From Nitrospinota bacterium (GTDB taxonomy: Bacteria; Nitrospinota; Nitrospinia; Nitrospinales; VA-1): a DNA stretch of 16,047 nt. How positions within the stretch are numbered: position 1 is the stretch's first letter; every line of letters starts with the position of its first letter. The stretch is from NCBI GenBank assembly GCA_038108555.1, contig JAYNIA010000046.1:6047-22093 (forward strand), read 5' to 3'. The translations under genes were made by a program, and so were the position numbers. The notes under the pieces were generated by a model that saw nothing but the letters and a program-made list of their open reading frames with translations, was not told where the DNA came from and did no database searches. Positions 5,456 to 15,865 of this stretch are shown here, one piece after another.

Positions 5456-6403
5456 ATGCATTATAAAATTCTTCCGGGCCACCTCTACTCGCAAAATCAA
5501 CGCGTCAATCTTTATTACCTGCACAATCTCTTTAGGGAAATCGCCACCCAGATTTCTCATCAAATGAAAGAAATCCATAATCTGGACACCCCTATTTCCG
5601 CCGGAATGTGGGGTGGGTCCTATATGGTGGCGTTAGATGACGGTGAAGCCCGGACTAATGTTGTGCGATTGTATTCAATTGTCAGCCTTCCTCAGAACAG
5701 TCCTCTCGATGAAAAGGAAAACTTTGAAAAGTTAATGCAGCTTTACCAAAAAAACTTTAGGGAAATATTTGGCAGGTACGGTCTGGACCTCGTCAACCCA
5801 AGATGGGGCGAGTTAATCCCCTACTCCAATAGAATAAGACCCACCACTGCCTTGCAGATGTGGGATACCCGTGGTCGAGCCAATTACGTCAGGGCTTTTT
5901 TCGTTTGGAATAAAGCCAGTTGGGAAGAATCCATTATTTACGATATGATCCGAAACATTAAAACGTTAAAGGAACTATTAAACATAAACACCCGCCCACC
6001 TAAAAAGGAGAGTTCGGAATTAAAGTTTTTACTCCAAGATGTGCTCATCACCTATGTCACACTACACGCTGCATTAACCCCTGATTTTGTCGAACACGCA
6101 GAACCGATCATCGAAAACCTTTTCAATCAATTTATAAATGGGTTGCATTCTGAGGAAAGCATCGAAGAGCAATATCACAGGGTTTACTCATCGGCTCTGG
6201 TCTACGGATTTGAGGAAGCCCTGTTGGAACCCTATAAAAAGGATAATCTGGATATCAGAAATGTAGAAGACTGGCCGGTGGATAAAATAAATTATGTCCC
6301 CAATGAACTTAAAGAAAAACTGGTTCCTGCGCTCCAAGCCCCCTGGAAAAAGTTTCATGCGACTCTGGAAAACAAATACGGGAAGACAAATTCCATTAAC
6401 TAA
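5456..6403 (+). CDS. Hypothetical soluble protein (315 aa)
   Basis: Long ORF starting 5 nt after the ilvD stop, with protein-like composition. No family recognised. Confidence 0.75.
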   Translation: MHYKILPGHLYSQNQRVNLYYLHNLFREIATQISHQMKEIHNLDTPISAGMWGGSYMVALDDGEARTNVVRLYSIVSLPQNSPLDEKENFEKLMQLYQKNFREIFGRYGLDLVNPRWGELIPYSNRIRPTTALQMWDTRGRANYVRAFFVWNKASWEESIIYDMIRNIKTLKELLNINTRPPKKESSELKFLLQDVLITYVTLHAALTPDFVEHAEPIIENLFNQFINGLHSEESIEEQYHRVYSSALVYGFEEALLEPYKKDNLDIRNVEDWPVDKINYVPNELKEKLVPALQAPWKKFHATLENKYGKTNSIN

Positions 6404-7163
6404 ATTTCAACAGCATCCACCCTGCCAAACCCTTTTGACCATTCAACTCCTTGTTCGAGCCATTCCACACAGCAACGGCCATTAAAACCGATTGACGAAA
6501 CTGGACGTCATTCATGTCATCGTTTACAAGGCGACGCTTAAAAATCAAACGCCAGGTATTATCTTTCCAAATCGCTGTTCCTTTAACATTTTGTTGATTT
6601 TGAAATGTCAGAGTGCTGAATCCTTCTGCGTTTAAATCCTCAACGGTATGAAAAACCAATGCTTTTTTCTCTTTCACTCCCGGTTGTCCCTTCTCACCTC
6701 CAATGGATTTCCATTGCCAGATATTCACGGGGACTCCCGGCTCTCCCATTGTGATTGAAGGGGCTTCACTAGCCGCTTCAACAGGAAACATCACAGCCGC
6801 CCGGTCTACATACAGCGAAGAATGTTCAAAAGTTCCATCCCTCGTTTCATCTTCCCATTCAAGCATGATGACAAGTTCCTTACGATTCGTAATCGCGCGA
6901 ATTGATACCTGCTTGGTCGATGGATTGGGCCATTTCGGATTTGTAATCATTTGCGGTCCCAACTCAATGGTAGTTACCGCCTGCTTGCCCTTCCAATAGG
7001 GATCAAAAGGATCAGTCGGCAAATTCCCCTCAACATTGGCAACCTCAATTGCCGGACCACAACTGCCCTCTTCCAAACAGCTTTCAATATTGGCGGAACA
7101 ACCCAATAAAGAAATTAAAATTACATAAATTAGCGTATTGTAAAAATACTTTTTAAATTTCAT
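6396..7163 (-). CDS. Lipoprotein with ethylbenzene dehydrogenase gamma-like (EbdC/NxrC-type, DOMON-like) heme b domain
   Basis: Basic N-terminus, hydrophobic stretch and LLGC lipobox. Family motifs LEWED, DRAAVMFP, ITMG, VNIWQW, AEGFSTLT, W...FKR.L, AVWNGS...GQK. The start is likely the ATG at 7163 (AGGA upstream); the alternative is TTG at 7178. Confidence 0.8.
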   Translation of the reverse strand: MKFKKYFYNTLIYVILISLLGCSANIESCLEEGSCGPAIEVANVEGNLPTDPFDPYWKGKQAVTTIELGPQMITNPKWPNPSTKQVSIRAITNRKELVIMLEWEDETRDGTFEHSSLYVDRAAVMFPVEAASEAPSITMGEPGVPVNIWQWKSIGGEKGQPGVKEKKALVFHTVEDLNAEGFSTLTFQNQQNVKGTAIWKDNTWRLIFKRRLVNDDMNDVQFRQSVLMAVAVWNGSNKELNGQKGLAGWMLLKFS

Positions 7164-7178
7164 TTTTCCTGGAGACAA

Positions 7179-12200: not shown

Positions 12201-12714
12201 TATTCGGACCCATAATTTCCGCATATTGCGCTGCAACTTTCGTAGCACGGGGCACATTCTCACGATTGACATTATGTGCCACCTCCCCACGAATGCAGGA
12301 ACTTAGGGCAATCAATCCTTCTGAATATTCCGACAACAACTCCTTATCAATACGGGGCTTATAATAGAACCCTTCCAGATAACCTTTGGTAATCAACCGA
12401 AGCAGGTTTTTGTATCCCGTTTCATTTTCCGAGAGAAGGATCAGATGGTAAGACGCATCACGCAGATTGTCTTTCGACTTTTTTTCATGTCGGCTTTCCG
12501 GAGCGACATAGACCTCACACCCTAAAATGGGTTTGATCCCGTGTTTTTTAGCTGTGTTGTAAAACTCGACGGCCCCAAACATATTGCCGTGGTCGGTCAT
12601 GGCAACTGCAGGCATCCCAAACTCCACAGCCCTTTTTATGAGGGGTTCGTGACGAATGGAAGAGTCGAGCAGCGAATAGGAAGTATGAAGGTGCAAGTGA
12701 ACAAAGTTGCTCAT
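9259..12714 (-). CDS. dnaE: DNA polymerase III alpha subunit
   Basis: PHP domain FVHLHLHTSYSLLD, GPGRGSAAGS, catalytic PDIDIDF, HAAGVVI, KMDFLGL, YGFNKSH, and a C-terminal OB fold. The start is likely MSNFVHLH at 12714. No intein is evident. Confidence 0.98.
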   Translation of the reverse strand: MSNFVHLHLHTSYSLLDSSIRHEPLIKRAVEFGMPAVAMTDHGNMFGAVEFYNTAKKHGIKPILGCEVYVAPESRHEKKSKDNLRDASYHLILLSENETGYKNLLRLITKGYLEGFYYKPRIDKELLSEYSEGLIALSSCIRGEVAHNVNRENVPRATKVAAQYAEIMGPNNFFLELQNHGLENQDRINKEIIGIGKKLDIPIVATNNCHYLNKEDFRAHEILLCLQTGKTISDPYRMQYPAPEFYFKSPQEMMELFKETPEAIENTLRIAERCELELEFDKLNLPDYPVPESYTLETYLEEISRKGLQDRFEELEKLGIDFDKSIYEKRLEEELGIIQRMGYPGYFLIVWDFIKHAKEQDIPVGPGRGSAAGSVVAYALKITDIDPMQYDLLFERFLNPERVSMPDIDIDFCMDGRDDVIKYVTEKYGGNQNVTQIITFGSMNAKGVIRDVGRVLDMTYGEVDKLAKLVPNKLNITLDDAFKEEKQFASLRKENEKVGELLDIAKSLEGLQRHCSTHAAGVVISSKALTEFCPLYKGGNDEVVTQYAMGSVEKLGLLKMDFLGLRTLTVIHNALKLIKQSQGKDLDISMIPLDDPETYKLLCDARTLGVFQLESSGMRDLLKKLKPDCFEDIIALLAMYRPGPLESGMVDDYVKRKHGTMELKFDLPQLRDILKETQGVILYQEQVMKIASVLAGFSLGDADLLRRAMGKKKPEEMAAQREKFMAGSEVNKIDLKKAEKIFDLMEKFAGYGFNKSHSAAYAQVSYQTAYLKAHYPLEFFGALITSDMDNTDKVLRYIHDCREMKITVQPPDVNLSHRDFSVSDNKLVFGLGAIKNVGSKAIDNIIEARKELKKFNSLSQLCESVDLQLANKRVFESLIKSGACDSLGQSRAQMLKDLQASMEQGQKKQRDRALGQTSMFDTFEEDVAPENGNGTPAEEWSEADRLKFEKESIGFYITGHPLDRFTKDLSWFTDATSASVAESGSSKTVSIAGIPIKHLPKTTRKGDKMGIITLEDLHGSIEVILWPEIYAKVESILLAEEPILVKGEVDSEGNMPKVIAKEVFPLIQAKQRFQGRVMIHFRTLGLEKETLLAVKDILAANKGNNDTRLHFISPDNKERVVTVSEDLRIQPSDEVIEQIQSLLGEDAILFE

Positions 12715-12885
12715 AATGGATTTTATAACCCTTTGCGAACTCCAAATCAACAGGTACCAATAAAGGCCAATAAATCAATACGTCAGAAAATAAGTCGCTC
12801 TTTTTTGCGCCGATAAAGGGTTCCCCGTTTCAAAACCAGATTCAGCAGCTCTTGATCAACATATCTTTTTCTAATTCCAAAAGAG

Positions 12886-12921
12886 GTAAAAAAATTTTTT
12901 AAAAGTTTAAAAAAAAATTAC
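12886..12921. promoter_or_regulatory. Candidate paired upstream activator sites, cassette 1
   Basis: GTAAAAAAATTTTTTA (12886-12901) and TTTAAAAAAAAATTAC (12906-12921). Centres are 20 bp apart, at about -125/-105 from the predicted sigma-54 start, the same positions as in cassette 2. Confidence 0.4.
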
Positions 12922-12991
12922 CCGATCAATTTCCAATCAAAAAAAAACATCATTTTATACGAATAAAAGAAGGATTAAGACACCCAATTTC

Positions 12992-13008
12992 CTGGCATGG
13001 ATTTTGTA
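12992..13008 (+). promoter_or_regulatory. Sigma-54 (RpoN) -24/-12 promoter, cassette 1
   Basis: CTGGCATGGATTTTGTA versus consensus YTGGCACGRNNNTTGCW, with correct spacing and the -12 GC varied to GT. The identical 17-mer recurs in cassette 2 while its flanks diverge. Confidence 0.75.
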
Positions 13009-13068
13009 ATACTAAAACCAATTGGTAGTTTTTTTATTCTTGGTTCTATTTTTGAAAGGAAAAATAAA

Positions 13069-13476
13069 ATGAAAACATATACGGAAGTAAAAAAAATCAC
13101 GGTTTTGGTTGCAATGTTTTTGGCAGGTTTCCTTGTTTTGGCAAACGGAGCCCTTGCTGGCTCTAACCATTTTGAAGAAGAAATGGCAGTGAAAGGAATC
13201 ACAGAAAATGCTGAGCATCGCAGTGGTCTGGGAACGGGCGAAAAAGGATTAACCCACCATCGAACTTTTTCCTCCCCAAAAATGAGATCTAATGTGGATC
13301 ATTTTGTTGAAGAAAGGGCCGCTAAGGGGATCGCAGATAAACCTGAGCATATTCATGGCCTTGGAACGGGTGAAAAGGATGCAGTTCATGGAAACACGGT
13401 CTTTCCATCAACAAGGGACACATACAAAGGCCTTTTTGATGAAGAAAGAATGGTTAAAGGGATACATAAAGATTAA
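13069..13476 (+). CDS. Secreted His-rich protein with 44-aa tandem repeats (135 aa)
   Basis: AAGGA RBS 8 nt before the ATG at 13069; the ORF-track start at 12997 lies inside the promoter. Sec-type signal peptide ending ALA. Repeats begin at 13168, 13300 and 13432. Confidence 0.8.
   Translation: MKTYTEVKKITVLVAMFLAGFLVLANGALAGSNHFEEEMAVKGITENAEHRSGLGTGEKGLTHHRTFSSPKMRSNVDHFVEERAAKGIADKPEHIHGLGTGEKDAVHGNTVFPSTRDTYKGLFDEERMVKGIHKD
13168..13473 (+). repeat. Intragenic 132-nt (44-aa) tandem repeat, about 2.3 units
   Basis: HFEEEMAVKGITENAEHRSGLGTGEK / HFVEERAAKGIADKPEHIHGLGTGEK / LFDEERMVKGIHKD. Units 1 and 2 share 19/44 residues, ungapped. Confidence 0.85.
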
Positions 13477-13496
13477 AGACAACAAAATAAAGAATA

Positions 13497-13550
13497 CACT
13501 TTTAACTTGGATCCTACTCAAATAGAACCAAGGGAAAAGTGAGAGTAGGA
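13497..13550 (+). ncRNA. Conserved structured 3'-UTR element, cassette 1
   Basis: CACTTTT-aa-CTTGG can pair with CCAAG-gg-AAAAGTG, and TCCTACTC with GAGTAGGA. AAATAGAACCAAG (13520-13532) is complementary to the 5' UTR at 13039-13051. The element is conserved in cassette 2. Confidence 0.55.
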
Positions 13551-13553
13551 AGG

Positions 13554-13588
13554 AAAGGCCCCGGATAATTAGCTTCCGGGGCCTTTTT
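13554..13588 (+). terminator. Rho-independent terminator, cassette 1
   Basis: AAAGGCCCCGGA-taattagct-TCCGGGGCCTTTTT, followed by further T's. Confidence 0.92.
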
Positions 13589-13702
13589 AGTTTTTTGCAT
13601 AACCTCTTACCAACATCCACAAACAGATTAACAATTTTTAATTTTCCCTTTCTAGTTGTTCAACCTTAAAAAGTTAACCGCAAGAAAGACAGTGCAGAAA
13701 TT

Positions 13703-13739
13703 AGAAAAATATTTTTCAACAAGTAAAATTTTTTTTACA
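13703..13739. promoter_or_regulatory. Candidate paired upstream activator sites, cassette 2
   Basis: Perfect palindrome GAAAAATATTTTTC (13704-13717) and AGTAAA-N6-TTTACA (13722-13739). Centres are 20 bp apart, at about -126/-106. Confidence 0.5.
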
Positions 13740-13809
13740 ACCTTCCTACTCCCCCTCCCTGAAATATCAATTTTAAGCCAAATAAAGCAGGGTTGAGGCG
13801 GAAAAAAGT

Positions 13810-13826
13810 CTGGCATGGATTTTGTA
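13810..13826 (+). promoter_or_regulatory. Sigma-54 (RpoN) -24/-12 promoter, cassette 2
   Basis: CTGGCATGGATTTTGTA, identical to 12992-13008. Confidence 0.75.
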
Positions 13827-13891
13827 CTACTGTTAGGCAATAGGTAATTAATAAATTTATTCTTGGTTCTATTTTTGAAAGGAAAAATAAA

Positions 13892-14026
13892 ATGAAAACA
13901 TATAGCGAAGTAAACAAAATCACAGTTTTGGTGGCAATGTTTTTTGCAGGATTCCTGGCTTTTTCAAATGCGGCAATGGCAAATCCAGGGTTATTTGTTG
14001 AAGAAATGGCAGTAAAGGGAATCTAA
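13892..14026 (+). CDS. 44-aa small protein MKTYSEVNKITVLVAMFFAGFLAFSNAAMA-NPGLFVEEMAVKGI (signal peptide plus 14-aa mature peptide)
   Basis: Absent from the ORF track. Same RBS as cassette 1. 31/44 aa identical, ungapped, to the N-terminus of 13069-13476, with 9 synonymous codon differences. Tandem TAA TAA stops. Confidence 0.75.
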   Translation: MKTYSEVNKITVLVAMFFAGFLAFSNAAMANPGLFVEEMAVKGI

Positions 14027-14052
14027 TAAAATTCCCAACAAGAGAAAAAATA

Positions 14053-14104
14053 CGCTTTGAACTTGGACCTGCTCTAATAGAACCAAGTTAAAAGTGAGAG
14101 TAGG
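14053..14104 (+). ncRNA. Conserved structured 3'-UTR element, cassette 2
   Basis: CGCTTT-g-AACTTGG can pair with CCAAGTT-a-AAAGTG, and CCTGCTCT with AGAGTAGG. AATAGAACCAAG (14076-14087) is complementary to the 5' UTR at 13862-13873. Confidence 0.55.
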
Positions 14105-14107
14105 ACG

Positions 14108-14139
14108 AGGCCCCGGAGAGTGAACTTCCGGGGCCTTTT
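14108..14139 (+). terminator. Rho-independent terminator, cassette 2
   Basis: AGGCCCCGGA-gagtgaact-TCCGGGGCCTTTT. Same stem as cassette 1 with a diverged loop. Confidence 0.92.
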
Positions 14140-14397
14140 GATTTTTGGAATAACTCTGATTTCACCCTGCCTTTAATGATTAAATTTCTTTAATGAAACC
14201 ACCTTATAAACCAATTCAACAAAGATTATTTTTTGTATCTTTTCCTCAAATAAATGATCTAATAATTAAAACAGGGAATCAATTCAACCTGGGGCAAAGA
14301 AAATGGCCACCCAAAAAAATGTAAGGAAACCTACCAACGAGTTGTCTGAAAATCACTTTGATGACAAGCCCTTTCTTTAAAAGATGAAAGTGGTCTA

Positions 14398-15387
14398 TTG
14401 GTCAACGACCAATTCGTAAGCGAAGGCCCCAAAATAAAAAAAATCAAGGACAAGATCCATCTGGTGGCAGATACCGATGTTGCCATTCTCATTCAGGGAG
14501 AAACCGGGACAGGGAAAGAATTGATCGCCCAGGTGATCCACGATAACAGTGAAAGAAGAAATGAAAACTTCGTGAAAGTAAATTGTCCCGCCATCCCCCG
14601 AGAACTTTTTGAAAGTGAGTTTTTTCGCCATATCCGTGGCTCTTTCAGTGGGGCCGTCAGCGACCGGGTCGGAAGGTTCCAACTGGCGGACCAAGGCACC
14701 CTGTTTCTGGACGAAATCACAGAAATCCCCCTGGACCTCCAAAGCAAACTGTTGCGCGTATTACAGGAAGGACAGTTTGAAAGGGTTGGAGAAAGTGAAA
14801 CCCGATTTATCGATGTCCGGGTCATCTCTGCAACCAACCGGGACCTAAAAAAAGAGGTCGAAGCCGGACGTTTCCGGGAAGACCTTTTTTACCGGCTGAA
14901 TGTTTTCCATTTAAACATCCCACCCCTGAGAGAACGATTGGTGGATATTGATCTTCTTTTTGACTACTACCTGAGGGTTTTCTGTGAAAAATATAAAGTT
15001 CCGATTATTACTCCCACTTCCTCGGATCGAAAAAAATTGAAAAGCTATTCCTGGCCGGGAAACGTGAGAGAACTGAAAAACATGCTGGAACGCGCTGTCA
15101 TTCTGTGCCGGAAAGATCCCGACAATTTCACCCAGGTCCTGGATGATCTCATGGGAAACATGGAACAGGAATTTCCCCAGTTCACAGATTCAGAAAAAAT
15201 CGTTGTCTCGAAGGAAAGCGACCTACAGGATTTGAACAAGGAAAACATTCTGAAAGCTCTCAGTGCGACAAACTGGAAAATATCCGGGGATCGGAGTGCA
15301 GCCCAGTTGCTGGGGGTAAAAGAAAGTACTTTGTGGAAACGAATCAATAAGCTGGGACTGAAAAAACCAAAAAATGTAGATATTTAA
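14398..15387 (+). CDS. Sigma-54-dependent Fis-family transcriptional activator (bEBP), AAA+ plus HTH, no N-terminal sensor domain
   Basis: Walker A GETGTGKE, ESEFFRHIRGSFSGA (GAFTGA variant), Walker B LFLDEI, LQSKLLRVLQ, FREDLFYRL, WPGNVREL, and a C-terminal HTH AAQLLGVKESTLWKRINKLG. The start is uncertain (in-frame TGA at 14362). Confidence 0.92.
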   Translation: MVNDQFVSEGPKIKKIKDKIHLVADTDVAILIQGETGTGKELIAQVIHDNSERRNENFVKVNCPAIPRELFESEFFRHIRGSFSGAVSDRVGRFQLADQGTLFLDEITEIPLDLQSKLLRVLQEGQFERVGESETRFIDVRVISATNRDLKKEVEAGRFREDLFYRLNVFHLNIPPLRERLVDIDLLFDYYLRVFCEKYKVPIITPTSSDRKKLKSYSWPGNVRELKNMLERAVILCRKDPDNFTQVLDDLMGNMEQEFPQFTDSEKIVVSKESDLQDLNKENILKALSATNWKISGDRSAAQLLGVKESTLWKRINKLGLKKPKNVDI

Positions 15388-15396
15388 TTCAGGGAT

Positions 15397-15606
15397 CTAC
15401 TGTTCCATCAAATCTTTGCCGAAAATCTCTTCGGGGGTCTTACCTTTCCAACGGGATAAAATCTTCTCATCGATGTTGAAGACATTGATCATTTCCTTCA
15501 ACACAACATCCTGGTTTTCCCGATCCTTACCGGGCAACTCATCAAGCCGGGCTTTTAAAATCGGATAACGCTTTTTAAAAATTTTCTTTTTTAAACGTTT
15601 TCTCAT
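15397..15606 (-). CDS. Small basic hypothetical protein (69 aa)
   Basis: ATG-initiated ORF ending 9 nt from the convergent bEBP stop, not overlapping another gene, with protein-like composition. Weak RBS. Confidence 0.5.
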   Translation of the reverse strand: MRKRLKKKIFKKRYPILKARLDELPGKDRENQDVVLKEMINVFNIDEKILSRWKGKTPEEIFGKDLMEQ

Positions 15607-15865
15607 TTAAATTCCAAGTAAAAAGGAAGCACTTAATGCATCTATTTAGCAGGTTCGATAGTCTAAAGCAAATATCTCAATCAACCACTAATAAATCAAA
15701 TAGTCAGAAATAAAATTTTATTGTCCTTGTTAGACGATACGGATCAAATAAATATAATACAGTGTTTCTTTCCCTGGCACTTTTCGGCTGGGTCGGCGGA
15801 TTGGTGGTCGCTACAAGAGCTACCATGCAACCGAAAACAGATGAATGTACCTATAATTAATCGAA

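Follow-up and report, generated by a model that had tools for sequence, protein, structure and literature searches.

What do two paralogous units do beside a gene for a bacterial enhancer-binding protein (bEBP) that has no sensor domain, and where do they come from? The question is raised by a 16,047-nucleotide stretch of a Nitrospinota bacterium genome (contig JAYNIA010000046.1, positions 6,047 to 22,093; hereafter, the window). Our answer is that the two units are probably an accessory sigma-54-promoter cassette in two copies, exporting repeat proteins predicted to be disordered under the neighbouring PAS-less bEBP, and likely the remnant of a Nitrospinota stress island that has shrunk. The analysis covered 120 genomes of the phylum, among them the window's own (G000; 2.9 Mb, 86 contigs, 92% complete), and 17 genomes of the genus, together with one further contig, L026. 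The Nitrospinota assignment agrees with the nearest protein homolog, which NCBI labels Nitrospinae.

Two paralogous units between dnaE and a bEBP gene

The two units lie at 12885-14141, between dnaE (minus strand, start at 12714) and the bEBP gene. Each is built in the same order: paired A/T palindromes, a sigma-54-type box, a leader, an open reading frame (ORF) with a signal peptide, a 3' element and a terminator. These shared parts had been proposed in a preliminary description of this DNA, and every one of them was found in its place. The -24/-12 boxes, said there to be identical, agree at 16 of 16 nucleotides (12993-13008 and 13811-13826); the leaders, also said to be identical, are so over the roughly 36 nt that precede the ATG but differ in their first 15-20 nt. 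The duplication itself holds for the window but is peculiar to this genome: no further copy was found in its 86 contigs, and the relatives seen have a single three-repeat unit.

The order of unit and bEBP gene is not restricted to the window. The preliminary description had linked the peptides to the bEBP, and this synteny recurs in G016 and L026, each with one three-repeat unit between dnaE and bEBP (dnaE, then unit, then bEBP). Across the 120 genomes the protein profile matches four, G000 and G016 in full and G079 and G077 weakly, chiefly through the signal peptide. The 5' end of dnaE is present in 11 of the 17 genus genomes and the unit stands beside it in only two of these, so the module is accessory. 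In G004, dnaE adjoins a 69-aa gene and an htpX-like gene, both of which follow the bEBP in the window. Two further sensorless bEBPs lie on contigs that match in length those carrying two of the peptide homologs, and are presumably linked to them. A search of genome contigs for related loci confirmed none of 56 candidates.

The surroundings of dnaE are themselves variable. The genes upstream of it differ among most genus genomes, and on the far side of the 69-aa gene the window (15634-15708), G016 and G004 all have a second stretch that resembles its 5' end or the region upstream of it (besides the window, L161 815-947 and L195 1074-1137), marking a possible integration hotspot.

The predicted promoters share the design of a wider regulon

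Both window boxes have the GG and G of a sigma-54 promoter at the correct spacing (GG-N10-G), with T instead of C at -12. At every examined locus of the bEBP clade the promoter has one design, in which two A/T palindromes 20-21 bp apart are centred near -100 and -80; the box of this clade, taken from 15 related promoters, reads TGG-N10-G with A at -12. A strict pattern of the design found it in three of five genomes and missed unit 2, G079 and G077. We scored the 1896 boxes of G000 with a matrix made from 15 promoters of other genomes and three generic boxes. The two window promoters came first and second (36.8 and 29.4, the next box scoring 20.6), a ranking that is supportive and not independent, because two of the training promoters are close homologs of those in the window. 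Since no other promoter of this genome scores near them, the regulon in G000 consists of just these two units; leader-like matches near two other bEBP genes of the genome are not further units. As rpoN is present in G000 and the synteny holds elsewhere, the earlier view of a bEBP-linked sigma-54-type unit stands, and by descent the module is very probably such a unit.

The same view had taken the regulon to be self-contained, and here it fails: the module derives from the wider regulon of bEBPs with two PAS domains (PAS-PAS). In PAS-PAS genomes the promoter design precedes genes for small acidic secreted proteins, groES, an ATP-grasp/gamma-glutamyltransferase/formylglutamate hydrolase operon and a histidine-kinase-like ORF, and YfdX and glutaminase are encoded near these promoters. 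The bEBPs of G079 and G077 lie ~2 kb downstream of the same design and of a small secreted protein with a related signal peptide.

At four loci (L174-L177, from G050, G047, G041 and G044) the PAS-PAS bEBP sits in a larger island, where the promoter design occurs as many as five times. Several small secreted proteins without a name, acidic or rich in Lys, are encoded there, along with YfdX, glutaminase, groES/EL, the ATP-grasp operon named above, MgtE-like genes and a stand-alone MCP-like fragment; the island has the look of a sigma-54 stress regulon not yet described. In G050, the promoter with the highest score (L174 2704-3450) is followed by ~400 nt with inverted repeats and no long ORF, a candidate sigma-54 non-coding RNA. 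In G079 and G077, two small conserved ORFs sit between the secreted-protein gene and the bEBP (L156 6858-7320, L157 5600-6060); one has CxxC motifs, with no Pfam match above the cut-off. In the literature, the string 'Nitrospin' does not occur in the main text of a pan-bacterial sigma-54 survey (PMC12316311), and a thin search found no work naming Nitrospina, Nitrospinota or Nitrospinaceae in this context.

Sensor loss in the activator lineage and possible damage to the window copy

The window bEBP consists of an AAA+ domain with Walker A and B motifs (PF00158, E 1.7e-68), a lid (PF25601) and a Fis helix-turn-helix (PF02954). Its closest relatives are PAS-PAS-AAA+-HTH proteins of 597-610 aa, in G079 and G077 (597 aa) and in four genomes of another family. 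In a tree of 22 rows, five sensorless proteins form one clade (support 100/100), sister to the G079 group (100/99) and nested within the PAS-PAS group, and monophyly of the PAS-PAS proteins is rejected (p-AU 0.0023; another analysis agrees). Because the sensorless proteins form a single nested clade, the absence of PAS is one shared event and not an assembly break: one sub-lineage lost both PAS domains. The claim of a sensorless bEBP, first made from the window sequence, is thereby borne out by tree and ortholog comparison, and the intact sensorless forms measure 338-357 aa. The loop motif reads GSFSGA throughout the sub-clade (G016, G079, G077 and others). An engineered, truncated DctD without its regulatory and DNA-binding domains is constitutive (PMC3844500); by analogy, loss of PAS may have made the bEBP of this lineage constitutive too.

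The bEBP gene does adjoin the units, as first described, but it carries two apparent lesions that had been overlooked. Translation from the homologous ATG at 14303 runs through 25 codons that are one base short relative to two relatives, and the ORF that begins with an in-frame TTG at 14398 is the tail of this gene. In addition, the FGH motif reads FRH, as in no other of the 12 orthologs listed; the same protein, FRH included, is also recorded from a Logan contig, which may go back to the same reads. With a frameshift and a unique G-to-R change in FGH, the activity of this bEBP is doubtful: the copy may be damaged, and we give this allele about an even chance of being active.

One could go further and propose that the whole module is decaying in this genome, with a dead activator, silent promoters and a unit 2 that is a truncated duplicate. 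The two bEBP lesions (the FRH change being present in the Logan-derived record of the same protein as well) and the presence of the module beside dnaE in so few genus genomes speak for it. But the bEBP has a dN/dS of only 0.057 against G016 and an ordinary branch length, so its lesions, and any decay, are recent. The lost 25 codons are unconstrained (G016 and L026 differ there by 10 non-synonymous and no synonymous changes) and a TTG is available in frame, the cis parts of both units are all intact, and the argument concerns the window copy and not the family. We consider general decay rather unlikely.

A candidate RNA element may pair the two ends of the messenger

The leader core and an arm of the 3' element complement each other perfectly, over 13 nt in unit 1 and 12 nt in unit 2 and over 13 and 11 nt in the two units of the relatives, lengths reached by 1, 7, 4 and 50 of 5000 shuffles, respectively. 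The complement of 12-13 nt thus exceeds chance. A flanking complement of at least 12 nt surrounds 5 of the 3230 ORFs of the genome. The leader core is invariant in all four units, and identity reaches 91% in the 3' element, compared to 62% in the part of the ORF that encodes the mature protein. For the 3' arm, pairing is possible either locally (z-scores of -2.5 and -2.9) or with the leader, and a third helix would present it in a loop; pairing is preserved in both proposed states in 112 of 112 cells of the four sequences. Outside the terminators the helices contain four changes, each an A>G that faces a U. The Shine-Dalgarno (SD) sequence lies downstream of the conserved helix, and its own predicted pairing is partial and differs among units. 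Between 3' element and terminator, G016 (L002 1399-1422) and L026 (2795-2811) have an extra hairpin that both window units lack.

The element is rare. Our RNA model (R1) recovered the held-out L026 unit at 149 bits; PAS-PAS loci scored 29-34 bits, probably through their terminators. Searching with leader and 3' element, as first suggested for this locus, thus found the G016 and L026 units, but among the 120 genomes strong matches were confined to G000 and G016, with one weak match besides. Among 146 loci both exact arms occur at G000 and G016 loci only, and leader core and 3' element are absent from the G079 and G077 units. None of 17 weak matches in Rfam 15 reached the gathering threshold, and a 17-nt leader pattern run over genome contigs gave chance matches in unrelated taxa. 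As for possible partners, Hfq was not found in G000, 92% complete, whereas CsrA is present there and was not found in G016; titration of CsrA by GGA sites in the 3' element is unsupported.

A functional pairing of the two mRNA ends seems somewhat favoured, and a true two-state switch unlikely. The built-in RNA switch of the preliminary description is unproven, with no pair changed on both sides. A bolder version holds that control moved to a new 3' element once PAS had been lost. The element would flip between folding locally as a hairpin and pairing with the leader in a pseudoknot-like manner, within one mRNA or across the two paralogous ones, and so act as the switch for a new family of exported proteins with three motifs. 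One lineage does combine the leader core, the 3' element, the repeat motif and the loss of PAS, and its sister lineage has none of them; still, we hold this transfer of control to be improbable.

A new family of repeat proteins, probably exported

ORF1 has three motifs spaced 44 codons apart, and ORF2 has one. A profile search of 1.84 billion representatives retrieved 7 proteins of this family, and a second search 11 at the 90% level. The comparison took in 13 members, of which 12 are long; each of these 12 has a predicted signal peptide (called by pattern) and exactly three D[LH]FxEExxxKG[IF] repeats, separated by 37-45 residues with hydrophilic spacers; in the alignment the motif alone is conserved and the spacers drift. 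AlphaFold2, run on 9 sequences, gave a pLDDT of 55.8, low-confidence spacers and short helices at the motifs. Values of pN/pS were 0.39 for ORF1 against L026, 0.67 against G016 and 0.35 against ORF2, compared to 0.08 for dnaE: selection on the family protein is purifying but weak. The 5' side of ORF2 aligns to repeat 1 and its 3' side to repeat 3 and the 3' untranslated region (UTR), so that it likely arose by a deletion between repeats 1 and 3. Export of the family protein is very likely.

The preliminary description did not recognise the module, and its small proteins indeed match nothing above cut-off in Pfam, NCBIfam, PDB or PHROGs; this family of small, probably exported repeat proteins is new and has no name. 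ESM Atlas returned no match of at least 0.9; a look-alike, the metal sponge PcoE/SilE, scored 0.87, below that bar. We rejected it, since the 12 long members contain 2-9 His, 0-4 Met and no Cys, with no conserved His/Met metal-binding motif. The role in metal handling once suggested for the peptides is therefore unsupported.

Could the repeats be cut out as secreted signals of 10-14 aa, with ORF2 as a single-core precursor? Conservation of the motif alone would suit such precursors, as would the 14-aa peptide that ORF2 would release, ending exactly at the motif (pN/pS 0.35). Yet the alignment shows no conserved cleavage site around the repeats, the module has no receptor, protease, modifying enzyme or transporter, and its bEBP has no sensor to read a signal, all of which makes signalling quite improbable. 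It is less probable again that the motif inhibits the sensorless bEBP, as PspA does PspF, and that export sets the output of the activator as a monitor of secretion. Motif and sensorless bEBP occur together in three sequenced loci and the motif is missing from the six PAS-PAS genomes examined, but this co-occurrence is no independent evidence because it reflects one evolutionary event, and the signal peptide should take the protein out of the cytoplasm.

A small hydrophobic toxin of type I, its mRNA silenced by long-distance pairing of 5' and 3' ends, would fit the 44 aa and single hydrophobic stretch of ORF2, and also the predicted pairing, which has a counterpart in the aapA/IsoA systems (PMC6733600). 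We find a toxin highly improbable: the hydrophobic stretch ends in a conserved AxA followed by ~100 hydrophilic residues in 12 of 13 members, the conserved helix stops short of the SD, and a search for sigma-70-like promoters on the antisense strand of 12750-14420 found none. Finally, the perfect 12-13-bp inverted repeat around each ORF might work at the DNA level, bounding a segment that can invert or was once mobile, an idea with scarcely any credit left given that orientation is the same in four of four units, no recombinase ORF exists in the window, the four 3' helix changes are of a kind tolerated in RNA only, and the related G079 and G077 units keep promoter and terminator without the repeat.

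A probable remnant of a stress island

We thus return to the two-copy sigma-54 cassette as a remnant of a stress island. In this model the bEBP would bind the paired A/T palindromes ~80-110 bp upstream, open the sigma-54 promoter and drive both units; without PAS, it would probably be always on, or limited by its own level or by a partner in trans. Sec export and cleavage after AxA would release a hydrophilic chain, whose three short helical motifs might, in the periplasm, attach to a partner or protect proteins or the membrane. On the finished mRNA, the leader would pair with the 3' arm at a site immediately before the SD; the local 3' hairpin would compete with this pairing, which would tune translation or half-life. 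A periplasmic stress role for the product is tentative.

Several observations weigh against this reading. The canonical C at -12 is replaced in all units, and the promoter training set contained the two close homologs and the three generic boxes. The loop reads GSFSGA, and in PspF the loop variant T86S kept binding to one sigma-54 patch and lost the other (PMC3467059). The RNA helices show one-sided wobble changes alone and no compensatory pair in four related sequences, and folding without pseudoknots favours the long-range helix in unit 1, G016 and L026 (~0.6-1.0) but not in unit 2 (0.03), where the local form prevails. Lastly, the stress role is read solely from neighbours in other genomes, whose proteins lack the repeat motif.

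Coordinates and neighbouring genes

Table 1. Features of the two units and of the bEBP gene, in window positions.
Feature	Position	Strand	Remark
Unit 1 paired A/T-rich palindromes, predicted bEBP sites (upstream activating sequences, UAS)	12885..12922	+	same pair, 20-21 bp apart, in 15 promoters of related loci
Unit 1 sigma-54-type -24/-12 box, non-canonical -12; predicted start 13019	12993..13008	+	matrix rank 2/1896
Unit 1 conserved leader; core 13039-13051 complementary to 3' element; SD ~13054-13060	13033..13068	+	
ORF1, 135 aa: predicted signal peptide (1-30) and three FxEExxxKGI repeats, predicted disordered chain	13069..13476	+	
Unit 1 conserved 3' element, alternative helices; arm 13520-13532 complementary to leader	13497..13550	+	
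Unit 1 terminator-like hairpin and T run	13554..13590	+	hairpin itself 13554-13586
Unit 2 paired A/T-rich palindromes (predicted UAS)	13702..13737	+	
Unit 2 sigma-54-type box; predicted start 13837	13811..13826	+	matrix rank 1/1896
Unit 2 conserved leader; core 13862-13874	13856..13891	+	
ORF2, 44 aa: predicted signal peptide and one motif; 14-aa mature peptide predicted	13892..14026	+	
Unit 2 conserved 3' element; arm 14076-14087	14053..14105	+	
Unit 2 terminator	14107..14141	+	hairpin itself 14107-14137
Homologous start of bEBP gene, out of frame with the rest; 25 codons, then stop	14303..14380	+	
Sensorless bEBP (AAA+, lid, Fis HTH) from TTG; GSFSGA 14638-14655; FGH>FRH codon 14626-14628	14398..15387	+	

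Elsewhere in the window, 6396-7178 (minus strand) encodes a protein with an ethylbenzene-dehydrogenase-type heme b domain (PF09459), a kind of protein considered a candidate nitrite oxidoreductase gamma-subunit. A 315-aa ORF at 5456-6403 (plus strand) has no Pfam match, and a 69-aa basic ORF at 15397-15606 (minus strand) is conserved in G016 and G004.

Comparison with known systems

What the locus offers is a Nitrospinota sigma-54 regulon not described before, for which a binding site is predicted. Its -12 base is shifted, and the documented loss of sensor domains allows a direct comparison of activators with and without a sensor. To this come a new family of small repeat proteins, probably exported, and a candidate 5'-3' mRNA element that is not part of a toxin-antitoxin system; the pairing of mRNA ends, if true, would add an RNA layer of control. 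Its weight is limited by the presence of the full repeat protein in 2 of 120 phylum genomes and by the possible damage in this one.

The closest parallel for the activator is PspF/pspA, in which PspF is regulated by PspA: both have an activator of AAA+ and HTH only, an adjacent sigma-54 target and an envelope-related product. Unlike PspF, the window bEBP comes from a PAS-PAS clade, lies downstream of its target in the same direction, has GSFSGA and scores 252 bits where the TIGR02974 cut-off is 444. Nor is its target PspA, for which neither ORF1 nor ORF2 gave a match in Pfam or NCBIfam.

ZraSR-zraP and Cpx-cpxP/CpxQ combine a small stress protein of the periplasm with a regulator encoded beside it or with an RNA from a 3' UTR. 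The module resembles them in having a small exported putative stress protein, a dedicated activator and a conserved structured 3' UTR, and differs in that its proteins have no Pfam or NCBIfam match, no sensor kinase belongs to it and Hfq was not found in the 92%-complete G000. With the hydrophilins GsiB, KGG (PF10685) and LEA_5 (PF00477) it shares hydrophilic repeats that have F, E, K and G at the same spacing (compared with repeats from two Bacillaceae genomes). Membership in KGG/LEA_5 was rejected, as neither PF10685 nor PF00477 matches and hydrophilin repeats score about -15 bits on the family matrix vs 23-38 for members; the window family also has a signal peptide, a 37-45-aa spacing and no Pfam match at all. 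The type I aapA/IsoA mRNAs (PMC6733600) are alike in the predicted pairing of mRNA ends around a short ORF, and unlike in that here the SD lies outside the conserved helix, the antisense search found no promoter and the product looks like a cleavable exported protein. Set beside these systems, the parts of the module are undescribed, while its layout is familiar.

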